This document shows positions 1,256 through 41,220 of a DNA stretch of 64,000 nucleotides, in pieces. A program made the position numbers and the translations under genes. Where the stretch lies: NCBI GenBank assembly GCA_905209455.1, contig CAJLTA010000004.1, positions 33,006-97,005 on the forward strand. Reading direction: 5' to 3'. The DNA comes from an uncultured Collinsella sp. (lineage in GTDB: Bacteria > Actinomycetota > Coriobacteriia > Coriobacteriales > Coriobacteriaceae). The notes under the pieces are model-generated. The model did not search any database and was not told where the DNA came from. It saw only the letters and a list, made by a program, of their open reading frames with translations. Position 1 is the stretch's first letter. Each line of letters opens with the position of its first letter.

Positions 1256-1531
1256 TTCGTTACAGATGAGGATAGTTGGTTGGCCGATGGACCGTCCCAA
1301 CCAATCATCTCAATCTGTAACGTCTGGACCGGTTTTTGAACCATAGCTGTTACAGATTTAGACAAACATTTCAGCCGAAAACTAACGTCTCGATCTGTAA
1401 CAACTAGACCCCGTTTTACCGAGTATTTGTTACAGATCAAGACAAACAGTTGGCAGGAAACTCAATGTCTCGTTCTGTAACATCTAGCAGCAAATATGAC
1501 CTCTAACTGTTACAGATTGAGACAATTGCCG
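1256..1531. repeat. Array of 3 tandem ~80-bp palindromic units. Each unit is bounded by 16-bp terminal inverted repeats, GTCTCGATCTGTAACA ... TGTTACAGATTGAGAC, around a 25-27 bp spacer.
   Basis: Seven alternating half-sites (gttacagat / atctgtaac) read directly: 1257, 1310, 1352, 1394, 1427, 1466, 1512. Spacers and linkers between units are loosely similar. The same unit recurs at 4965-5106. Confidence 0.85.
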
Positions 1532-1565: not shown

Positions 1566-3650
1566 CTAGATACAGAATCCGGGGATCACGCAGGTTCGTT
1601 TGTTTGGCTTGTCCGCAGGCGTTGCGTACGTAAAGGCGTCGCCGTCGTGGCCCACACGGTTTATGTAGAGCGTGCCTTCGGTCTCCGATGAGTCGGGGCT
1701 CACCGTGCGCTCCCACCAGCAGGTGTCCTTGCCCTTCCACTGACGGACCATCGCCTCGTTCGTGGAATACGGGCTCACCTTGAGCTCGCGGAAGAGTTGG
1801 TACTCCTTGCCCTCGCTGTTGTAGATGTCTGCCAGGTAGTGATAGTCCTTGGCAAACGAATCGGGCGGTTGCGTACCGCACAGCTCGACCATGGCGGGCA
1901 GCCAAAGGGTTGCGGGCAACTCGCTCAGACACGATGCACTGTTGGCTGCGCCCACATTGTTCGAGACCTTCTTGACCCCTTTAATGAGCGCGCACAACTC
2001 GTTGGGTAGCAGCTTAAGGCCGTCGCCGTTGAGCCATTCCCGCAGCTCGCAATCTGCCCAGCCGGCGCTCGGCGGTTCAGCTGCAGCGTTGCGCTCGGCA
2101 ATACCCGCATCGAACATAAACGTCAATCCGGCCTTGCCCGTCCCGTCCAGAAGCTCATCGTGGCGGATGCCCACAAGCTGCGCGCCAACCTGCAGCCCGT
2201 TGGTGAGCGTGACACGTTTGGTACACGGATAGGGGATATGCCCATCGGCATCGAGCAGGTGATAGCGCTTGGCAATCTCGCGTGCCTCGCTACGGGTCTC
2301 GGCGGCCTTAATCTTGAGCGAAATCTCCTGCAGCTGATCCCAGGTGTAGTCGCCAAGCGAACCGCGGATGCCGTCCAGGTAGTCGGGGATGCCAAAGCCA
2401 TGGGTCGCCGCCCCAACGACGCTGAGCCCCGCAACGGCTGCAACGACGCCACCGATAATAAACCGGCGGCGGGTCATGGCATCGTGTCGGGCCTGCTCCA
2501 GAATCTCTCTCGCGCGCTCGCCGGCGACGTCGACCTTAAGGTGCGTACCGGAGTCGATGTCGATTGCGGCGTCACTGCCCGCGCCCTCGCGGCCCTCGGA
2601 TTCGGCGTCGGTGAGGTATGTCGAGAGCACCTCGAGCATCTGCTGCTCGGTAGGGCGATCGCACTGCTCGACTGAGAGACCCTTCATGATGATTTGGACA
2701 AGCGCTTCATCGCCCTCGCAGCGCGGCTCGAGCGGTGCCGGCTTGGTCTTGGTCTTTACGAGATAGAACGAGCCGGTTGCAGCGGCGTCCGTCGACTCAA
2801 AGTCAAACGGTTTGCGACCGCTGTAGAGCTGGTACAAAATGCTCGAAAGCGCGTAGACATCGATTGCCGGCGAACGGCGAAGGGCCGTGATGCCTTCGAT
2901 ATCCTGCGTGAGCATTTCGGGCGCAGCGTATGCGGGCGTGGCAAAGCGCCAGATGTCGGCGCGCCGGGTGATCGTGTCGTCGCCGAGAGCCATGGTCGCG
3001 GAGCCCATGTCGATGAGGCAGGGGTCAAAGGAGCAATCGGCAATCTGCTGCTCGAGCGTTCGGCTGGTGGTGCGGAACATGATATTGGCAGGCGACAGGT
3101 CGCGATGGATGACCGGATTCACGAGGCCTTGGGTTATCAAGAGCGCACGAAGCACGGCGTTTCCGACGGCGGCGACCATCTGGGTGGTCAGCCCGCCCGA
3201 GGCGTCGTGCGGAAGCAGGGGCAGCGCCTGCTTGAGCGAGATGCCCTCGACCCACTCCATGAGGATGAGCGGGTCATCCTCACACGAGCCGTAGCCATAG
3301 ACGCGCGGAAATCCGCGCAGGTGCGAGACGGTACACAGATGACGGTACTCCTCGAACAGCGCAGCGGTGTTGGCCAGGTGCGCTGCCGATTGCTCGGCGG
3401 AGCGATCGAGGGCTTGGCCGGAAAGGATGGCATTGTCCTTGAGTAGCTTGACGGCAAAGACCTCGCCGCTCGTGTTGGTCGCGCGCAGCACGTGCCCGAT
3501 GTTGCCGTTGTTGCGGTGGGCCGTCTGGAGAATAAGCGTCATAAGCCGACGCTTGGCGTCGTCCTCGGCGCTGGGGTCGACCGCCACGGCGGTATCGAAC
3601 GTATCGAGACGGATGAGTTTGTCGCCATAGGCGCTATCGGTAGTATCCAT
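1566..3650 (-). CDS. Transmembrane Ser/Thr protein kinase with an uncharacterised ~300-aa extracytoplasmic C-terminal domain.
   Basis: Hanks kinase motifs are present: VAIK-like FAVKLL, HRDLSPANIM, DMGSA, and APE in AYAAPE. A single TM helix (RRRFIIGGVVAAVAGLSVVGA) follows. The C-terminal domain is Cys-containing (CWWERT, VIPGFCI). The likely start is the internal Met MDTTDSAYGDK at 3650; the track ORF extends to 3737. Confidence 0.85.
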   Translation of the reverse strand: MDTTDSAYGDKLIRLDTFDTAVAVDPSAEDDAKRRLMTLILQTAHRNNGNIGHVLRATNTSGEVFAVKLLKDNAILSGQALDRSAEQSAAHLANTAALFEEYRHLCTVSHLRGFPRVYGYGSCEDDPLILMEWVEGISLKQALPLLPHDASGGLTTQMVAAVGNAVLRALLITQGLVNPVIHRDLSPANIMFRTTSRTLEQQIADCSFDPCLIDMGSATMALGDDTITRRADIWRFATPAYAAPEMLTQDIEGITALRRSPAIDVYALSSILYQLYSGRKPFDFESTDAAATGSFYLVKTKTKPAPLEPRCEGDEALVQIIMKGLSVEQCDRPTEQQMLEVLSTYLTDAESEGREGAGSDAAIDIDSGTHLKVDVAGERAREILEQARHDAMTRRRFIIGGVVAAVAGLSVVGAATHGFGIPDYLDGIRGSLGDYTWDQLQEISLKIKAAETRSEAREIAKRYHLLDADGHIPYPCTKRVTLTNGLQVGAQLVGIRHDELLDGTGKAGLTFMFDAGIAERNAAAEPPSAGWADCELREWLNGDGLKLLPNELCALIKGVKKVSNNVGAANSASCLSELPATLWLPAMVELCGTQPPDSFAKDYHYLADIYNSEGKEYQLFRELKVSPYSTNEAMVRQWKGKDTCWWERTVSPDSSETEGTLYINRVGHDGDAFTYATPADKPNKRTCVIPGFCI

Positions 3651-4964: not shown

Positions 4965-5106
4965 TCTTGATCTATAACAATTAGGACCGATTTTACTCGG
5001 TAACTGTTACAGATTGAGACGTTTGTGAACCGTGTCGACCGTTTGTCTCGATCTGTAACACGTAGAGGAAGATTTGCCCTGTAGATGTTACAGATTGAGA
5101 CAATCA
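4965..5106. repeat. Two further copies of the ~80-bp TIR-bounded palindromic unit. Same family as 1256-1531.
   Basis: tgtcttgatctataaca...ctgttacagattgagac and gtctcgatctgtaaca...gatgttacagattgagac. Both arrays end with the motif tgttacagattgagacaat. Confidence 0.85.
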
Positions 5107-5372
5107 GCCAGGCCCGCCCCGTCCGCCTCGTCATCTGTGGTTTACGTGGGGGCATGCGAAGTACGGGTATACTAACCGGCGGCGAATCTGCTCCATCGCT
5201 TAGAGCTGCTGCGTCTGGACGGCGCGTGATAAGGCTGCCAAAGCGATCGCCAGCGTGCTGAGCAACGTCCTCTCTGTGCGCACCTGTTTTTGTATGTATT
5301 AGCGCACTACCAAGCACGCTCGCGCGGCCGCATGCCGTGCCCATAATGCGTGCAGATAAGGAACAACAACAT

Positions 5373-7628
<2,256 letters not shown>

Positions 7629-7658
7629 ACGCGTCGCACGCTAGAGCGAGGCGAACTA

Positions 7659-7694
7659 AGGGCCCCGAGCAACTACGCTCGGGGCCCTTTTGTT
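7659..7694 (+). terminator. Rho-independent terminator of the helicase gene.
   Basis: agggccccgagc-aactac-gctcggggccct followed by ttttg. Confidence 0.8.
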
Positions 7695-7797
7695 TGCCGC
7701 ATCCGACCGTTGGTCCGGTGTGATTTGCTCAGGAATGCACCTGGAGGATGCTGAAGGCCCGTTTTCAGCCATGCGGCAATGGGTCCCATGGGGTGCG

Positions 7798-8060
7798 CCG
7801 TGCATTTTTTGGAGTATTCTGCAGATCGAGTTGCCTGCATACGATTCGACGTCGCCAGCGGTGGCCTTCGGATATCCCTAGCGAGTGTTTTGAGTCAGAC
7901 TTTTCCGTTTTCCGGTGCAAAGGTGTGTCATTCTCGTTATAGCGGAACCCAAAACGATGCAGCGCCCTACAGTTTTGCCCGCTCGCGGCGGTGTTGGCAC
8001 GAGCGCGTTGCAGAATACTCCGTTTTTTGCACGGTCCGGGATGGGGTACCTCAGGAGAAC
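7798..8060. repeat. ~260-bp intergenic element bounded by 27-nt inverted blocks, CCGTGCATTTTTTGGAGTATTCTGCAG ... TGCAGAATACTCCGTTTTTTGCACGG. Copy 1 of 2.
   Basis: The left block at 7798-7824 and the right block at 8009-8034 are mutual reverse complements apart from the T-run. The second copy at 27058-27320 has identical ends and equal internal length (~185 bp) but an unrelated interior. Candidate MITE or small-RNA locus. Confidence 0.6.
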
Positions 8061-8133
8061 ACAGCGGTATCACGTAAATATATGCAATCTGTAACGGAAA
8101 TTATGCAAATCAATGAGGCAGACAGCATAGTTT

Positions 8134-8215
8134 GGTGCAAAGGGGTCAGGTTAATCTGCACCAGGTTGGTGGAAACAAACCTGACCCCTTTGCGCTAAAC
8201 CGGGGTGTCCCCGCG
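8134..8215. repeat. ~65-nt nested hairpin repeat (19-bp stem enclosing a palindromic apex tgcaccaNgttggtgca) plus a conserved tail GG(G/A)GTGTCCC. Upstream copy.
   Basis: ggtgcaaaggggtcaggtt-aatctgcaccaggttggtggaaacaa-acctgacccctttgcgc. A near-identical copy lies at 9054-9150, on the other side of the same gene. Confidence 0.7.
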
Positions 8216-8281
8216 CGCCGTATACTCTGTCTAAGCATGCGGGCGGCTTGGTGTGTTACCAAGCGTAGGGGAGGATGTTCG

Positions 8282-9043
8282 ATGAGCATGTTCGAAATTG
8301 TGTTTAGTCCGACGGGCGGAACGGAGAAAGTGTCTGGTCTTGTGACCGGGGCGCTGGATGGGAATATCGTTACCGTCGATCTGACCGATAGCGGGTTGGA
8401 TTTCCACGGGGTCTCGATGGCGAAGGGCGACGTTGCGGTTATCTCCGTCCCATCATATGCTGGCAGGGTTCCAGCTGTGGCGGTTGAGCGACTGGGAATG
8501 GTGCGTGGCAACGGAGCTCGGGCTGTTTTGGTTTGTGTTTACGGGGGCCGCGCGTTTGAGGATACGCTTATTGAGCTGGAAGACGTTGCGAAGCGTGCCG
8601 GATTTAGGGTGGTTGCAGCGGTTTCTGCCATTGCCGAGCATTCCGTTGCTCGTCAGTTTGCTGCTGGGCGACCGGATGCGCAGGATGTGGCGCAACTTTC
8701 AGAGTTTGCGCAGCGAATCCGGCAAAAGCTACTGGACGGGGCTGCGTCCGAGCCCTCTATTCCCGGCAATCGTCCTTATAAGCAAGCTGGAGGCCACAGT
8801 ATGGTGCCCCATGCAACGGAGGATTGCGTCTCCTGCGGTGCTTGCGCTGCGTTGTGCCCTGTTCGAGCTATCGACAAGGACGATCCAAGGCAGGTGGATG
8901 GCGAGGCGTGCATCTCCTGCATGCGTTGCGTCTCCGTATGCTCGCAGAATGCTCGCAAACTTGACCCTAACAAACTTGCCGCCGTTACCCAGATGCTGAG
9001 CAAGGCTTGCGTCGAGCGCAGGGAATGTGAGATCTTCATCTAA
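8282..9043 (+). CDS. Flavodoxin-like domain fused to a 2x[4Fe-4S] ferredoxin domain (EFR1-type ferredoxin).
   Basis: MSMFEIVFSPTGGTEKV flavodoxin-fold N-terminus. C-terminus carries CVSCGACAALCP and CISCMRCVSVC clusters. SD aggggagga. The track ORF starts further upstream at 8132. Confidence 0.8.
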   Translation: MSMFEIVFSPTGGTEKVSGLVTGALDGNIVTVDLTDSGLDFHGVSMAKGDVAVISVPSYAGRVPAVAVERLGMVRGNGARAVLVCVYGGRAFEDTLIELEDVAKRAGFRVVAAVSAIAEHSVARQFAAGRPDAQDVAQLSEFAQRIRQKLLDGAASEPSIPGNRPYKQAGGHSMVPHATEDCVSCGACAALCPVRAIDKDDPRQVDGEACISCMRCVSVCSQNARKLDPNKLAAVTQMLSKACVERRECEIFI

Positions 9044-9053
9044 CGCAAGCGAG

Positions 9054-9150
9054 ATTGGTGCATTGGGGTCAGGTTAATCTGCACCAAGTTGGTGCAAACA
9101 AACCTGACCCCATTGCACCAGAGCAAGGAGTGTCCCTGGGTGCCGGCAGA
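9054..9150. repeat. Downstream copy of the nested hairpin repeat.
   Basis: ggtgcattggggtcaggttaatctgcaccaagttggtgcaaacaaacctgaccccattgcacc...ggagtgtccc. Partial covariation in the stem relative to copy 1 (aa/tt versus tt/at). Confidence 0.7.
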
Positions 9151-9386
9151 AATGGAGTGCCCCTAAGTGTCGCCTAAATACCGTTTATCGAAGAAAAAAT
9201 ACCGTTCATCGGTCATAATGATTGTTCCGGCTTTGGAATTGTCTACAAAAGCTCCCGTAAAAAGAAATGCGGAAGGTTACCGAGTCCCTCGGACGTGGGC
9301 CTAACCAAAGTCTTTGAACGGGTGTGTCTCTATGGATGCATTCGCTTGATTTTGGTTGGGCTATATTTATGAAGGGACATGCCACC

Positions 9387-9899
9387 ATGGGTTTCTTTTC
9401 TCGCCTGATGGGCGGTTCGGATGAGCAGAAGACTGCGGCTTCCGAGTTCGAAATCCTCGCTCCCGTTTCCGGCGAGCTTGTTCATCTAGAAAATACCAAT
9501 GATCCCGCTTTTAGCAGCCGTGCTGTGGGCGATGGCGTTGCCGTGGTTCCCCAAGAGGGAACGGTGTGCGCTCCTGTTTCCGGCACCGTTGCGGCGCTGT
9601 TTCCGACTGAGCACGCGCTGGGCATCATGTCCGACGACAGCTCTGCTCAGGTGATGCTGCATATCGGAATCGACACTGTTAAGCTTGAGGGCAAGGGCTT
9701 CCATGCGCTTGTTGCCCAGGGTGACCATGTCGACGCGGGCCAGCCCCTCGTCGAGGTCGATTTCGACGCGGTCCGCGCCGCCGGCTTCGATCCCACGGTC
9801 TTCGTTATCGTGTGCGAGCGTTCAGAGAACTCGACTCTTCGTGAGCATGCTTCCGGCCCTGTTGCTGTTAAAGAGCCTGTCGTCTGGCTTTCCGAGTAA
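9387..9899 (+). CDS. crr: PTS glucose-family EIIA component.
   Basis: VGDGVAVVPQEGTVCAPVSGTV...TEHALGI...HIGIDTVKLEGKGF (EIIA-Glc active-site histidines). An alternative in-frame ATG lies at 9369. Confidence 0.85.
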   Translation: MGFFSRLMGGSDEQKTAASEFEILAPVSGELVHLENTNDPAFSSRAVGDGVAVVPQEGTVCAPVSGTVAALFPTEHALGIMSDDSSAQVMLHIGIDTVKLEGKGFHALVAQGDHVDAGQPLVEVDFDAVRAAGFDPTVFVIVCERSENSTLREHASGPVAVKEPVVWLSE

Positions 9900-9905
9900 A
9901 TTCTT

Positions 9906-10772
9906 GTGGTGGGTACCGTGGTTATCAAGCGAGTTTTTAACAACAACGTCGCAATGGTCACTTCGGACGATGGCTCCGAGCTCATCGTCATCGGCCGAGG
10001 CCTCTGCTTTGGCCGTCATGCCGGCGATGCCATCGACGAGGCGTCGATCGAAAAGACCTACGCGTTGCAGGAGGGAACTTCTCAGGATTCGCGTACGATT
10101 GACCGCTTGGCACATCTTTTGGAGTCCATCCCCACCGTCAACCTCGTGATTGCCGAGGACATTGTTCAGATGCTCCGTCGTGAGCTCAATGTTGATATCA
10201 ACGACAAGATTCTCATTGCTCTCGCAGACCATATCAGCCTTGCTTTGGAGCGTGAGCGCAAGGGCGTCTCCTGTGAGAATCCGTTGCTGCTCGAGATCCA
10301 GCAGTTCTATCGCAAGGAGTATGCACTTGCGGGCCGTGCGCTGCAGATTATCAAGGAGTATATGGGCATCCAGATGAGCGAAGAAGAGCAGGGCTTCATT
10401 ACGCTGCATATCGTCAACGCCACCATGCCGCAACGCTCCGACCGTTTGATTGTTTCGGTCCAGCTTGTTCGCGACGTGCTCGCGATTGTTTCCGAGCGCT
10501 ATGCTACGACCCTCGATGACACCTCGTTGCCCTATGAGCGTTTCGTCCGCCACCTGCAGTTTTTCGCACAGCGGGCGCTTGACCCCACGGCCGGGCAAAT
10601 CAATGGCGACGCGCTGTTCCGAATCGATGAAACGGCGTATCCGTGCGCATTCTCGTGCGCGGACGCCATAGCCGCCCACTTGTCGTCTACCTATAACGTT
10701 GTCGTTACCGATGCCGAGAAGAGCTATCTCGCATATCACATTGTTAACCTGCTTGGAGAACCTGGTCTCTAG
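9906..10772 (+). CDS. licT: BglG/LicT-family transcription antiterminator. CAT RNA-binding domain followed by two PRD domains.
   Basis: N-terminus VIKRVFNNNVAMVTSDDGSELIVIGRGLCFG matches the LicT/SacY CAT domain. PRD histidines are in context. The start is a GTG, at 9906 or 9918. Confidence 0.8.
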   Translation: MVGTVVIKRVFNNNVAMVTSDDGSELIVIGRGLCFGRHAGDAIDEASIEKTYALQEGTSQDSRTIDRLAHLLESIPTVNLVIAEDIVQMLRRELNVDINDKILIALADHISLALERERKGVSCENPLLLEIQQFYRKEYALAGRALQIIKEYMGIQMSEEEQGFITLHIVNATMPQRSDRLIVSVQLVRDVLAIVSERYATTLDDTSLPYERFVRHLQFFAQRALDPTAGQINGDALFRIDETAYPCAFSCADAIAAHLSSTYNVVVTDAEKSYLAYHIVNLLGEPGL

Positions 10773-10871
10773 GCATAACGTGCCCACACATCGATTGATA
10801 TAAGGCAAGGCTCACGGTCTTGTCCAGGGCACATCTGTCTTAATTTGCGGAAAAGGAAGGGGAGTACCGCT

Positions 10872-12488
10872 ATGACCGCAAAAAAGAAGTTCAATTTCAA
10901 AGCGCCGTTGGAGGTGTTCGCGAAGTCGATCGTCCAGCCGATGATGTATCTCTCGGTTGCCGGCATCCTGCTCATTGTGGGCATCATTCTGACCAACAAG
11001 ACCATTTGCGCTTTGGTCCCCGTACTGGGCTCCGGTCCGTTCCAGCTTGTGGGCGCCGTTGTCTACCAGTCGCTGATGTTTATCATCAACAACCTCTCGA
11101 TTCTGTTCTGCGTGGGCATCGCCGGCGCCATGGCAAAGAAGAACAAGGGCCATGCTTCGCTGATCGCCCTGATGTCGTTCTTCCTGTTCCTGCAGGCTAA
11201 CAACATCGTGCTCAACGCCACCGGCTCTCTTGCCGATGCGAGCGGCATGCTCGGCCTTACCGGAACCGGCCAGGCCACCGTTATGGGCATCCAGGTGCTC
11301 GATACCGGCGTGTTCGGCGGCATCATTCTCGGTTGCATCACCGGCGCCGTGTTCAACAAGTACTCGAACAAGCAGTTCCCCATTGCCCTTTCGATGTTCT
11401 CGGGCGTTCGCTTCCCGTTCCTGATCATGATCATCATTTCCTGGATCATGGGCGCTGGCTTCTGCATCGTTTGGCCTCCGGTTCAGGGTGCCATCTCCTC
11501 CGTTGCCGGCATCATTAAGGAGTCGGGCAACATCGGCCTGTTTATCTACGGCATGCTCAACAAGCTGCTCGTTCCCACCGGTCTGCACCACCTCATCTAC
11601 ACCCCGTTCCAGTTCTCCGATGTGGGTGGCACCCTTACGCTGGGTGGTCAGGTTATCGCCGGCGCCTATCCCATCCGTGTTGCCGAGATGGCAATGACGG
11701 GTCAGCCCTTCTCCGATAGCACCTACTTCAACAGCTACACCTTCAACAATCTGTGGCCCTACATCGGCATCGGCCTCGCCTTTATCGTCACCGCCTACAA
11801 GGGGAACAAGGATAAGACCAAGGCCGTTATCATCCCGCTGATCATCACCGCCGTGCTCTCCTGCGTGACCGAGCCCATGGACTTCCTCTTTGTCTTTGCC
11901 GCTCCCGTGCTCTTTGTCGTTCACTCGGTTCTTTCCGGCATCTTCCTGGTCCTGCTCAAGGTCCTCTCCGTGCCCGCTTCGACTGCAGGCGGCATCATCA
12001 ACATCGTGGTCTCCAACCTGGTCCTGGGCGTCGATAAGACCAACTGGCCGGTTATGCTGGTGCTTGGAGTCGTCAACGCCGCGCTGTACTTCTTCCTCTT
12101 CACCTTCCTTATCAAGAAGCTCAACCTCCACACGCCTGGCCGCGAGGAGGAGTCCGAGCTCGCCGAGTCCGTTGCCGAGGGCGAGGCCGCCGCGTCTGTC
12201 GCAGTGAAGCAGGGCGCCGTTGCCGCGGCTCCCGCAGAGGGCGTCGATGCAGGTATTGCCGACCTGGTCGCAGGTCTTGGCGGCAAGGACAACATCGAGG
12301 AGCTCGAGAACTGCTTTACGCGTCTCCGCGTGAACGTTAAGAACCCGGACCTCATCAATGAGGACCTCATCAACCACGTGCCCAACAGCGGCATCAACCG
12401 CAACGGCAATAATATCCAGATCATCTTTGGCATGAAGGTCGCCGAGATGCGCGACAAGGTCGAAAACGCAATTGAGAAGGAGCAGTAA
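10872..12488 (+). CDS. PTS glucose/alpha-glucoside-family EIICB component.
   Basis: Polytopic EIIC domain, then a C-terminal EIIB domain with the NCFTRLRVNV active-site Cys motif. ATG at 10872 with SD aaggaagggga. The track ORF starts at the TTG at 10845. Confidence 0.85.
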   Translation: MTAKKKFNFKAPLEVFAKSIVQPMMYLSVAGILLIVGIILTNKTICALVPVLGSGPFQLVGAVVYQSLMFIINNLSILFCVGIAGAMAKKNKGHASLIALMSFFLFLQANNIVLNATGSLADASGMLGLTGTGQATVMGIQVLDTGVFGGIILGCITGAVFNKYSNKQFPIALSMFSGVRFPFLIMIIISWIMGAGFCIVWPPVQGAISSVAGIIKESGNIGLFIYGMLNKLLVPTGLHHLIYTPFQFSDVGGTLTLGGQVIAGAYPIRVAEMAMTGQPFSDSTYFNSYTFNNLWPYIGIGLAFIVTAYKGNKDKTKAVIIPLIITAVLSCVTEPMDFLFVFAAPVLFVVHSVLSGIFLVLLKVLSVPASTAGGIINIVVSNLVLGVDKTNWPVMLVLGVVNAALYFFLFTFLIKKLNLHTPGREEESELAESVAEGEAAASVAVKQGAVAAAPAEGVDAGIADLVAGLGGKDNIEELENCFTRLRVNVKNPDLINEDLINHVPNSGINRNGNNIQIIFGMKVAEMRDKVENAIEKEQ

Positions 12489-12491
12489 ACA

Positions 12492-13874
12492 ATGATCATT
12501 ACTCTGTGTGGTGGCGGATCCACCTTTACCCCCGGCATCGTCAAGTCCATCGCCCTGCGCAAGGACGAGCTCGACGTTGACGAGATTCGTCTGTACGACA
12601 TCAACGAGGAGCGCCAGCGCAAGGTCGGCGTGCTCGTGGACTGGATTTTGCACGAGGACCTCGGCCTGGACATCAAGCTCACGGTGACCACCGACAAAAA
12701 GACGGCTTTTACCGACGCGAGCTTCGTGTTTGCCCAGATGCGCGTGGGCGGCTACGCCATGCGCGAGCAGGACGAGAAGATTCCGCTGCGTCACGGCTGC
12801 GTGGGCCAGGAGACTTGCGGTTGCGGCGGCCTTGCCTACGGCATGCGCACCATCTTCCCCATGGTCGAGCTGATCGATGACGTTGAGAAGTACGCCAAGA
12901 AGGATTACTGGATTCTCAACTACTCCAACCCTGCTGCCATCGTCTCCGAGGGCTGCCGTGTGCTGCGTCCCAACGCTCGCATCATCAACATCTGCGACAT
13001 GCCGATCGCGATCATCGACGTGGTTTGCGCCGCGCTCGATATCGACAAGAAGGATGTCGAGTACGATTACTTTGGCCTCAACCACTTTGGTTGGTTCACC
13101 TCGATCCGCCACAAGGGCGAGGAGGTGCTCCCGCAGCTGCGCGAGTACATCAAGGAGCACCAGATCCTGCTGCCCGACTCCTACCTCAAGGGCATGGGCT
13201 CGCTCATGGCAAAGAAGCCCGAGGAGGCCACCGACGAGCATCCCGAGCAGAATCGCCACACCAAGGGCAGCTGGTACTACGTCTGGAAGGGCGAGTACGA
13301 GATCATGGAGTGCTTCCCGGAGTACCTGCCCAACACGTATCTGAACTACTATCTGCAGCAGAAGGAGTTCGTCGAGCATTCCAACCCCGAGCGCACCCGT
13401 GCTAACGAGGTTGAGGAGACGCGTGAGAAGAACCTCTTCGACGGCATCGACCACTACGAGAAGACGGGCGAGATCGACGAGAGCACGTTCTATGCGGGCA
13501 GCCACGGCGACTGGATTGCCGACCTGGCTATCGCTCTGAAGAACGACACCAAGCAGCGCTTCCTGGTCATTTGCGAGAACAAGGGCGCTATCCCCAACAT
13601 GCCCTACGACGCCATGGTCGAGCTGCCTGCCTACATTGGCAAGAACGGCCCCGAGGTCATCAGCCGCGACAACATTCCTCTGTTCCAGCAGGGCCTCATG
13701 ATGCAGCAGCTGAACTCCGAGAAGCTCGTGGTCGAGGCTACGATCGAGGGTTCGTACGAGAAGGCGCTCAAGGCCTTTACGCTGAACAAGACCGTGCCGT
13801 CGATGAAGGTCGCCAAGGAGGTTCTCGACGACATGATCGAGGCCAACAAGGGTTACTGGCCCGAGCTTAAGTAA
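12492..13874 (+). CDS. Glycoside hydrolase family 4 enzyme, likely a 6-phospho-alpha-glucosidase (GlvA/MalH-like).
   Basis: MIITLCGGGSTFTPGIV NAD-binding N-terminus typical of GH4. Conserved CDMP motif. Context with a Glc-family EIICB. Confidence 0.8.
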   Translation: MIITLCGGGSTFTPGIVKSIALRKDELDVDEIRLYDINEERQRKVGVLVDWILHEDLGLDIKLTVTTDKKTAFTDASFVFAQMRVGGYAMREQDEKIPLRHGCVGQETCGCGGLAYGMRTIFPMVELIDDVEKYAKKDYWILNYSNPAAIVSEGCRVLRPNARIINICDMPIAIIDVVCAALDIDKKDVEYDYFGLNHFGWFTSIRHKGEEVLPQLREYIKEHQILLPDSYLKGMGSLMAKKPEEATDEHPEQNRHTKGSWYYVWKGEYEIMECFPEYLPNTYLNYYLQQKEFVEHSNPERTRANEVEETREKNLFDGIDHYEKTGEIDESTFYAGSHGDWIADLAIALKNDTKQRFLVICENKGAIPNMPYDAMVELPAYIGKNGPEVISRDNIPLFQQGLMMQQLNSEKLVVEATIEGSYEKALKAFTLNKTVPSMKVAKEVLDDMIEANKGYWPELK

Positions 13875-13907
13875 AAGCAACAGGGTCGCTGGCCGCATAC
13901 CTGGAGC

Positions 13908-13952
13908 AATGCCCCGTCCACGTGATTGCGTGGGCGGGGCATTGTCATTTGG
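13908..13952 (+). terminator. Rho-independent terminator of the PTS operon.
   Basis: aatgccccgtccacg-tgattg-cgtgggcggggcatt, then a T-rich tail. Confidence 0.6.
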
Positions 13953-20206: not shown

Positions 20207-20420
20207 ATACTAACTCAGCAACAAAATGATTCGTTTTCCTCCGTCCCCATGGGGTCGGGTGTGGTATTCTATCTGCGGGGTAATACTTAGGAATACCAAG
20301 TAATACCAACGCCGCAGAAACAAACTCCGGATGCGGGCCAATCGGGTTGCCTTCACAGCCCGTCGCCCAGCCGCGTGGCCCGCATCTATCCGCACTACCG
20401 TCGTTTCAAAAAGGAAGCGC

Positions 20421-34086: not shown

Positions 34087-34241
34087 GCCGCGCCAAAAAC
34101 GAATTGTGCAAAACCGCTCCTCCGGGGGCGGTTTTTTGATCCCCTGGGGACGGAGGAAATCTGTTGGCGTGGGGCAAATCTGTCCGCTTGGGCGGGTAGG
34201 ATGGATGCATTGATTATTGCGAACAGTTTGAGCGGAGGACC

Positions 34242-41045: not shown

Positions 41046-41220
41046 CCCTCAGATAACTTGCGGTGGAATACGGACTGTTTTGGCCAAAAAGCCGCCAAAC
41101 AGTCCGCATTTCACCGCAACTGCAAGAGGAGCCGTGTTGGTTTGGCTAGGTTCGGGTGCCGTCCGCGCCGTGCGGTAAAATCGTTCAGTCAGAACACGAA
41201 CCCGCATCGGAGCTCATCAC

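Follow-up and report, generated by a model that had tools for sequence, protein, structure and literature searches.

The window analyzed here is a stretch of 64,000 nucleotides from an uncultured Collinsella sp. (contig CAJLTA010000004.1 of assembly GCA_905209455.1), in which a single ferredoxin gene is bracketed by two long, nearly identical hairpins. The window aligns at 92 to 97% identity over kilobases to contigs labelled Collinsella, including those of Collinsella aerofaciens. The enclosed gene (8282-9043, plus strand) encodes an EFR1-type flavodoxin-like/2x[4Fe-4S] ferredoxin of 253 amino acids. Its N-terminal region matches the EFR1 model, the open reading frame (ORF) has Pfam matches to Fer4, Fer4_7, and Fer4_9, and the 2x[4Fe-4S] domain is C-terminal. 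The NCBIfam model NF038196 (EFR1 family ferrodoxin) scores 70.5 bits, just below its cut-off of 75, and an 88%-identical C. aerofaciens protein carries the NCBI name "EFR1 family ferrodoxin". Upstream lies a DEAD-box helicase gene (5337-7625), whose intrinsic-terminator-like hairpin (7658-7689, plus strand) forms the left anchor of a variable region, and downstream lies an operon (9150-13941, plus strand) encoding a phosphotransferase system (PTS) EIIA protein, a BglG-type antiterminator, a PTS EIIBC protein, and a GH4 protein. The two hairpins very likely belong to a dispersed family in Collinsella that resembles the repetitive extragenic palindromic (REP) sequences, the bacterial interspersed mosaic elements (BIMEs), and the REP doublet-forming hairpins (REPINs) of other bacteria.

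The initial annotation reported the same hairpin on both sides of the gene, and this was confirmed, the two elements being direct copies of 67 nucleotides (nt) each with a start-to-start spacing of 923 nt. Copy 1 (8132-8198) ends 83 nt 5' of the ferredoxin start codon, and copy 2 (9055-9121) starts 11 nt past the ferredoxin stop codon (TAA, 9041-9043). By our own count the copies agree at 59 of 67 positions over the hairpin, and over 80 nt their identity is 84%. No other short-range inverted repeat of the window is as long as these two. RNA folding gave -50 to -57 kcal/mol (z = -6 to -8) for both hairpins on either strand, and DNA folding gave approximately -28 kcal/mol (z = -8 to -9). The 22-mer GGGGTCAGGTTAATCTGCACCA is confined to these two places in the window, and the half-hairpin 22- and 23-mers are absent elsewhere in it, the expectation from shuffled sequences being 0 in each case. 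An nhmmer profile built from 94 family units recovered just four units in the window, which are those of copies 1 and 2. A third, degenerate copy considered at position 7914 (GGTGCAAAGGTGT) was dropped, having no nhmmer support.

Both hairpins are doublets in which two 33-nt units, TTGGTGCA-NN-GGGGTCAGGTT-NNNN-TGCACCAA, stand head to head. With TTGGTGCA written as A and GGGGTCAGGTT as B, the hairpin reads A-NN-B-NNNN-A', one base, A-NNNN-B'-NN-A'. Copy 1 consists of a forward unit at 8132-8164 (TTGGTGCA AA GGGGTCAGGTT AATC TGCACCAG), a spacer G at 8165, and a reverse unit at 8166-8198; the corresponding positions in copy 2 are 9055-9087, 9088 (again a G), and 9089-9121. The unit is itself an imperfect palindrome whose A:A' stem spans 8 bp and reaches as many as 11 bp in the archetype TTGGTGCAAAG/CTTTGCACCAA, and a single unit self-folds as DNA at -6 to -10.7 kcal/mol. 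In the profile of 94 distinct units the stem sequence is conserved, and the invariant GGGGTCAGGTT sits in the unit loop. Some details of the earlier description need to be amended. The perfect 8-bp apex TGCACCAA/TTGGTGCA that had been ascribed to both hairpins is present in copy 2, whereas copy 1 has TGCACCAG/TTGGTGGA, and of the two core-adjacent stem positions behind the claim that differences between the copies are partly compensatory, one is compensated (A-T to T-A) and the other is not. The GTGTCCC tail (8206-8212 and 9130-9136), which had been described as part of the element, lies outside the repeat family and is a feature of the local flanks at just these two sites. The likeness of the two sites runs approximately 20 to 25 nt past the repeat: the tail after copy 1 (8199-8222, plus strand; AACCGGGGTGTCCCCGCGCGCC) resembles the tail after copy 2 (9122-9179, plus strand), which includes a tandem duplication of approximately 26 nt (GGAGTGTCCCTGGGTGCCGGCAGAAAT, 9127-9153, followed by GGAGTGCCCCTAAGTGTCGCCTAAAT, 9154-9179) that is single-copy in two related contigs (L245 and L180; comparison loci are given as L numbers). 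Among strains, the copy-1 tail is kept at the copy-1 site regardless of the form that the repeat takes there. Also downstream of copy 2 is a 15-nt repeat, AAATACCGTTYATCG, with copies 21 nt apart (9176-9211).

Other copies of the element were sought with two scans, one for B...B' hairpins in one genome per species (at least 120 loci, approximately 21 from Collinsella) and one for A-NN-B in metagenomes (at least 120 human-gut contigs, 953 kb). Both scans are pattern-ascertained, and the family counts cover the listed Collinsella genome and human-gut metagenome contigs. They comprise at least 157 elements, made up of 86 singlets, 57 head-to-head doublets, 12 tail-to-tail doublets, and one each of the arrangements BBb and Bbb. 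Among the matches listed, the elements fall into up to 38 site clusters when both flanks must match, a number pooled across Collinsella contigs rather than counted in one genome, and 16 of these clusters are singletons, some of which may be artefacts of truncated flanks. The Collinsella copies of the genome scan (approximately 21 loci among the matches listed) have at least 8 unrelated flanks. Of 31 evaluable sites, 29 are intergenic, many within tens of nucleotides of an ORF end, as judged from approximate gene positions given by a crude filter on ORFs and third-position GC content. Pairs of the repeat also bracket genes unrelated to the ferredoxin gene, including a nucleotidyltransferase/HEPN-like (toxin-antitoxin) pair, a lipase-like gene, and a gene for a membrane Fe-S protein. 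Doublets mostly join units of different subtypes, defined by the 4-nt segment next to B, and their spacers may be 11 nt or approximately 100 nt long besides 1 nt. A scan of viral contigs for the Collinsella unit returned 0 matches, giving no link to phages. The initial annotation had left open whether the hairpins bound a gene cassette, are REP/BOX-like elements, or act as regulatory RNA, and had held that a special tie to the gene would fall away if the hairpin were a common element at dozens of unrelated intergenic sites. That is the distribution found, with copies dispersed at dozens of mostly intergenic sites, and of its proposals the REP/BOX-like one was correct, the 33-nt unit being found singly and in doublets at as many as 38 sites defined by their flanks. 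The hairpins are an ordinary dispersed repeat and not a switch or cassette made for the ferredoxin gene.

Several of the features by which REPs and REPINs are known were found, namely, a short palindromic unit and both doublets and singlets, which occur at the same orthologous sites, whereas the conserved GTAG or CGTC tetranucleotide at the foot of the hairpin is absent. As in the REPs and BIMEs of Enterobacteriaceae, the unit is an imperfect palindrome of approximately 33 nt that is extragenic and often lies shortly after the end of a gene; single units exist beside inverted pairs of different subtypes, as in the BIME mosaics of Escherichia coli, and the unit is predicted to form stable hairpins in mRNA 3' regions. 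It differs from the enterobacterial elements in carrying its conserved 11-nt motif in the loop rather than the stem, in an apparent copy number in the tens, and in its host, an actinobacterium of the Coriobacteriia, in which no linked REP-associated tyrosine transposase (RAYT) was found. The likeness to the REPIN-RAYT systems (Bertels and Rainey; PMC3116915, PMC3337134, PMC5581495) lies in the inverted doublet, which forms one long hairpin, and in the singlets, which look decayed. Sites are also inherited at orthologous positions in related genomes, as are those of REPINs. The Collinsella units are separated by a 1-nt spacer, unlike the units of Pseudomonas REPINs, where the spacer measures tens of nucleotides, and no RAYT was detected near any of the approximately 160 Collinsella copies. 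Membership among the REPINs is therefore judged by form. The Correia/NEMIS elements of Neisseria, the BOX and RUP elements of pneumococci, and the ERIC elements of enterobacteria are likewise non-coding, dispersed, and hairpin forming, mark rearrangement hot spots, and are often cotranscribed with their neighbours; they are, however, approximately 100 to 150 nt long, Correia and RUP elements have terminal repeats and target duplications, and none of them has sequence similarity to the Collinsella unit. The family seems to be undescribed to date, REP-like in kind. Literature searches on Collinsella REPs and on RAYTs and REPINs in Actinobacteria turned up no description of it; in full-text searches the core motif appeared only in eukaryotic primers and response elements, and it was not present in a paper on Stenotrophomonas and Pseudomonas REPs.

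Doublets and singlets interconvert at orthologous sites. At five such sites, some strains have a doublet where others have a singlet or a remnant. The copy-1 site holds a doublet in the window and in L062, L182, L034, L194, and L150, and a decayed singlet (e.g., TTGGTGCATTGGGGTGCTTGATGCACCAA) in L003, L043, and L121 to L126, with the ferredoxin gene intact in all of the loci of both kinds. Since many strains lack copy 1 as a hairpin, it cannot be essential. At the copy-2 site, 11 loci have a doublet and L034 and L122 have a singlet; in L121 and L150 the site is reduced to a bare TTGGTGCA. At a further intergenic site of the window (34135-34162), L076 has a doublet of the repeat where the window has an unrelated filler of 24 to 26 nt.

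This variation bears on the best of the alternatives to a REP-like family, namely, that the hairpins are immobile, host-selected sites whose TTGGTGCA...TGCACCAA arms and GGGGTCAGGTT core are bound by a nucleoid, topology, or recombination protein, or that they serve as bidirectional terminator-like insulators. Such sites could account for the conservation of sequence rather than pairing, for the failure to find a transposase, for orthologous positions kept across divergent Collinsella, and for the several copies that directly abut terminator T-tracts, as does the singlet next to the helicase terminator in L150, L245, and L180. Their presence, form, and orientation nevertheless differ between close strains, many subtypes are freely combined in doublets, as in a replicating population, and related hairpins of other phyla are tied to RAYT genes. 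We consider this alternative unlikely, and it is in any case compatible with a REP-like family, the REPs of E. coli being both. Terminator T-tracts were also considered as an insertion target and were rejected, the flanks of different site classes sharing no target.

A second alternative, raised in the initial annotation, is that the hairpins are a pair of regulatory RNA structures specific to this gene, the 5' copy acting as a leader and the 3' copy as a stabilizer or terminator. The great stability of both hairpins as coding-strand RNA agrees with such a role, as do their positions, 83 nt ahead of the start codon and 11 nt past the stop codon, and the effects that REPs have on mRNA and translation in E. 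coli. Folding, however, is equally stable for the opposite strand, and the covariation expected of a selected structure is absent. In an alignment of 32 distinct doublets from different sites, scored over the full-hairpin pairs against 500 shuffles, 82.3% of cells were paired, compared with 84.7% when partners were shuffled among sequences; the covariation score lay below all 500 shuffles, and stem mutations were uncompensated. The compensatory signal is thus absent family-wide, whatever the single compensated position that separates copies 1 and 2. The arms are each conserved as sequence, and the pairing of the hairpin follows from that, a pattern that fits a young or protein-recognized DNA repeat and not a selected RNA structure. 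Rfam at gathering thresholds gave nothing in the whole window or in ten non-Collinsella loci, and at E <= 1 the only matches in the region 7600-9400 were to generic miRNA-precursor hairpins and scored far short of the threshold. In a scan for promoters and terminators, the stretch from copy 1 to the gene had no promoter call, and copy 2, which is not followed by a U-tract, was not called as a canonical terminator. L003, L043, and L121 to L126 have a decayed singlet for the 5' copy, and L034, L122, L121, and L150 have a singlet or a remnant for the 3' copy, with the gene intact in every case, and the same element stands at dozens of sites whose neighbour genes are unrelated. A leader and stabilizer pair as a selected function is thus very improbable, and an incidental effect of the 3' copy on mRNA is possible.

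The remaining proposal of the initial annotation, a gene cassette bounded by recombination sites, was assessed by comparing the locus among relatives. The gene follows the same helicase gene in the relatives examined, at 80 to 97% protein identity; it is kept behind the helicase gene in most and is missing in two contigs, L245 and L180. Four locus architectures occur among the compared contigs, which together form a mosaic that also involves two other palindromic repeat families, hp2 (GATCCGTTTTCCTCCGT...ACGGAGGAAAACGGATC) and the larger hp3 (AAGTTGCGGTGGAATA...TATTTCACCGCAACT). In the window, the order is helicase gene, 440-nt spacer, doublet, ferredoxin gene, doublet, and PTS operon. The second architecture (L034 and L122) is without the PTS operon, the ferredoxin gene being followed by a singlet and then an hp2 hairpin. 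The third (L150) is without the spacer and runs from the helicase terminator through a singlet, hp3, a doublet, the ferredoxin gene, a second hp3, and a remnant to the PTS operon. The fourth (the metagenome contigs L245 and L180) is without the ferredoxin gene and has the helicase terminator, a singlet, hp3, a singlet, the tail, and the PTS operon within approximately 150 nt. In L245 and L180 the breakpoints of the absence lie in palindromic repeats and the flanks are 92 to 97% identical to the window. Because the gene is old at this locus and the flanks that lack it are this similar to those of the window, loss of the gene is more parsimonious than gain. The junction in these two contigs is explained by a deletion between flanking palindromes, either the hp3 copies of an L150-like ancestor or the REP doublets of a window-like one, and the flanking repeats probably promote loss of the ferredoxin gene.

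A cassette moved by a site-specific recombinase, with the hairpins as attC-like or similar recombination sites, would also account for the direct repeats that tightly bound one gene, for the single repeat and tail that remain in L245 and L180, and for the likeness of the two sites into the 3' tail, which a one-copy circle would leave behind after a single crossover. The resemblance to integron cassettes extends to imperfect palindromes of approximately 60 to 70 nt that bracket one promoter-less-looking ORF in direct orientation. The stems, however, are perfect or near-perfect, and inspection showed no bulged or extrahelical bases, no conserved R''/L''-L'/R' boxes, and no R''/R' AAC...GTT boxes. 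Neither an integrase nor a cassette array was seen in the window, in which no systematic search for either was made. No Y1 transposase ORF lies nearby, Y1 transposases being the only recombination enzymes screened, with integrases and serine and tyrosine recombinases outside that screen. The gene sits between the helicase gene and the PTS operon at one fixed locus, behind the same helicase gene in every relative examined, and the same palindrome is scattered singly over the genome and in pairs beside unrelated genes, at dozens of sites in all. The state without the gene is equally explained by deletion between flanking hp3 palindromes of the L150 type. What survives of the cassette proposal is thus the repeat-promoted loss of the gene, and a site-specific system is highly improbable. 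A miniature inverted-repeat transposable element (MITE) from a DDE-type insertion sequence, with TTGGTGCA and TGCACCAA as terminal inverted repeats, is just as improbable: the repeat is short, intergenic, and dispersed and has inverted ends, but no direct duplication is visible at its borders in the flanks of any site class, no insertion sequence or other full-length element with such ends was seen by inspection in approximately 1.2 Mb of flanking DNA, the 33-nt unit is far shorter than usual MITEs, and mosaics of singlets and doublets are typical of REPs and BIMEs and not of MITEs.

Several observations weigh against a REP-like family spread by transposition. Searches by tblastn, phmmer, and a hidden Markov model of four sequences, which covered the Collinsella DNA at the loci compared rather than whole genomes, detected no RAYT or Y1 ORF, whether in the window, among the 21 Collinsella genome loci, or within the 953 kb around the at least 120 metagenome copies; the transposition step in Collinsella is accordingly conjectural. 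A clean empty site that would display insertion borders or target duplications was sought among the orthologous sites, and only doublet, singlet, and remnant alternatives were seen, so that the changes observed are conversions of one form into another and replacement rather than insertion. The density of two doublets per 64 kb, with few extra copies in the flanks, suggests copies per genome in the tens and not in the hundreds. The GTAG/CTAC and CGTC tetranucleotides of classical REPs are absent from the unit consensus, the gene positions behind the intergenic count are approximate, and the similarity to hairpins of other phyla described below is partly imposed by the search pattern. Mobilization of the RAYT type in Collinsella is, by reasoned inference, a tentative proposal that has somewhat less than an even chance of being right.

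That proposal draws on the matches of the genome scan outside Collinsella. These carry the same core in long perfect hairpins, frequently more than one to a genome and close to contig ends, and come from taxa that include Lysobacterales, Burkholderiales, Gemmatales, Opitutaceae, Phycisphaerae, Pelosinus, and Synergistales. In a Lysobacter locus (L040, 1926-2767), two GGGGTCAGGTT hairpins lie 13 to 21 nt from either end of a 257-amino-acid ORF, flanking this RAYT-like gene as REPs flank RAYTs; the ORF matches Pfam Y1_Tnp, and it matches the NCBIfam model for REP-associated tyrosine transposases at 70 bits, below the cut-off of 80. In a Gemmatales locus (L098, 2197-4477), a hairpin abuts a Y1_Tnp-like ORF, and two further hairpins lie 1.4 and 2.2 kb downstream. 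At least 4 of approximately 100 non-Collinsella loci of 8 kb contain RAYT-like ORFs, where 0.3 would be expected at one to two RAYTs per genome by our own estimate, which was not computed. A related motif, GGTGTCAGGGA, flanks the RAYTs of two other loci (L038 and L054). Among 105 non-Collinsella hairpins, positions left free by the search pattern are strongly biased, with A at -3 and -2 in 80 to 85% and T at +4 and +5 in 80 to 83%, and the resulting extended consensus AAN-GGGGTCAGGTT-NNYTT also fits the Collinsella unit. One betaproteobacterial subfamily has 20 contiguous bases in common with Collinsella units. In a small control on viral contigs, the real pattern gave 3 matches and two composition-matched shuffled patterns gave 0 and 0. 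Some of the non-Collinsella hairpins have extra outer GGGGTCA/TGACCCC repeats (e.g., L061, L091, and L111). Readings of the core as tRNA T-arm mimicry or as Tn3-type GGGG inverted repeats were rejected by inspection, the stems extending past the core as inverted and not direct repeats. A broader idea is that GGGGTCAGGTT within AAN-GGGGTCAGGTT-NNYTT is the recognition module of a RAYT clade across Pseudomonadota, Planctomycetota, Verrucomicrobiota, Bacillota, and Actinomycetota, that the Collinsella REPs, which would present it in the loop of the unit, persist without a linked transposase, and that doublets serve as portable substrates of recombination and so drive a cassette-like gain and loss of single genes such as the ferredoxin gene; this is speculative and, taken as a whole, doubtful.

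If the two hairpins are members of a REP-like family, the presence of both beside one gene calls for a local explanation, and their adjacency is not random scatter, since the window holds only these four units. Copies 1 and 2 share the otherwise rare subtype pair AATC/AACA, and the core of copy 1 as found in L194 and L150 matches that of copy 2 exactly. Given the rare subtype pair and the approximately 20 nt of extra flank that they have in common, one copy most likely derived from the other. The derived copy would have arisen 923 nt from its source through local duplication, or through gene conversion of a singlet already in place, and the pair would not have been installed to serve the ferredoxin gene. 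The family as a whole may have spread by single-strand hairpin transposition of the RAYT (Y1/HUH) type, and doublets may decay by slippage between the 8-nt direct repeats. As a side effect, the direct repeats and neighbouring palindromes would make the ferredoxin gene prone to deletion. REP hairpins in E. coli shield upstream mRNA from 3' exonucleases, and those within approximately 15 nt of a stop codon can stall terminating ribosomes and lower translation. Copy 2, which as RNA would be a very stable 3' hairpin, could likewise protect the mRNA or disturb translation termination.

The neighbourhood of the pair has features of its own. The helicase has a C-terminal tail of approximately 300 amino acids with an extreme abundance of Arg, Gly, Asp, and Glu (RGG/RDE repeats), which brings the local GC content to approximately 74% and produces long spurious ORFs in other frames. 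The 440-nt non-coding spacer (7691-8131) is present or absent among strains, being absent in L150, L245, and L180, and is only 84 to 86% identical in strains whose flanks are approximately 95% identical. It holds a perfect 13-nt inverted repeat (7811-7823 and 8009-8021) with 185 nt between its arms, and Rfam gave no match in it. The PTS operon is a presence/absence polymorphism of close Collinsella strains, and the left breakpoint of its absence in L034 and L122 is copy 2.

Other palindromic families occur in the same regions. The hp3 family, a dispersed repeat of approximately 65 to 90 nt (AAGTTGCGGTGGAATACGGACTG...CAGTCCCTATTTCACCGCAACT), is present in the window at 41056-41121 and in L121, L150, L180, L245, L127, L154, and L168, among others, and is often directly beside or between REP units. 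Two hp3 copies flank the ferredoxin gene in L150, and one lies between two REP singlets in L245 and L180, which lack the gene. The hp2 hairpin repeat (GATCCGTTTTCCTCCGTCCCC...GGGGACGGAGGAAAACGGATC) is found in the window at 20228-20248 and 34137-34160, in L034 on the reverse strand at approximately 3085-3185, and in L122 at approximately 1411-1500. In L034 and L122 it stands in place of the PTS operon junction, and the window has a fragment of it at the site where L076 carries a REP doublet. A fourth family consists of clustered palindromes built on GTCTCGATCTGTAACA and TGTTACAGATTGAGAC, with several copies in two intergenic regions of the window (1258-1443 and 5005-5103); one arm carries CACGTAGAGG, which contains a GTAG, and related sequence is present in L030 and L093.

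Where strong hairpins bracket a Collinsella gene, they should be taken for REP-type repeat clutter rather than for the marks of a cassette or a riboregulator, and the finding at the ferredoxin gene is in itself ordinary. Only the core motif shared across phyla might merit more work: if the link to RAYTs of distant phyla holds, it would provide a testable DNA motif for a widespread and poorly characterized group of domesticated transposases. For Collinsella itself, the REP family and at least three other nearby palindromic families mark hot spots of gene and operon turnover between strains, the cases here being the ferredoxin gene, the 440-nt spacer, and the 4.8-kb PTS operon, and the same repeats probably also break metagenome assemblies.

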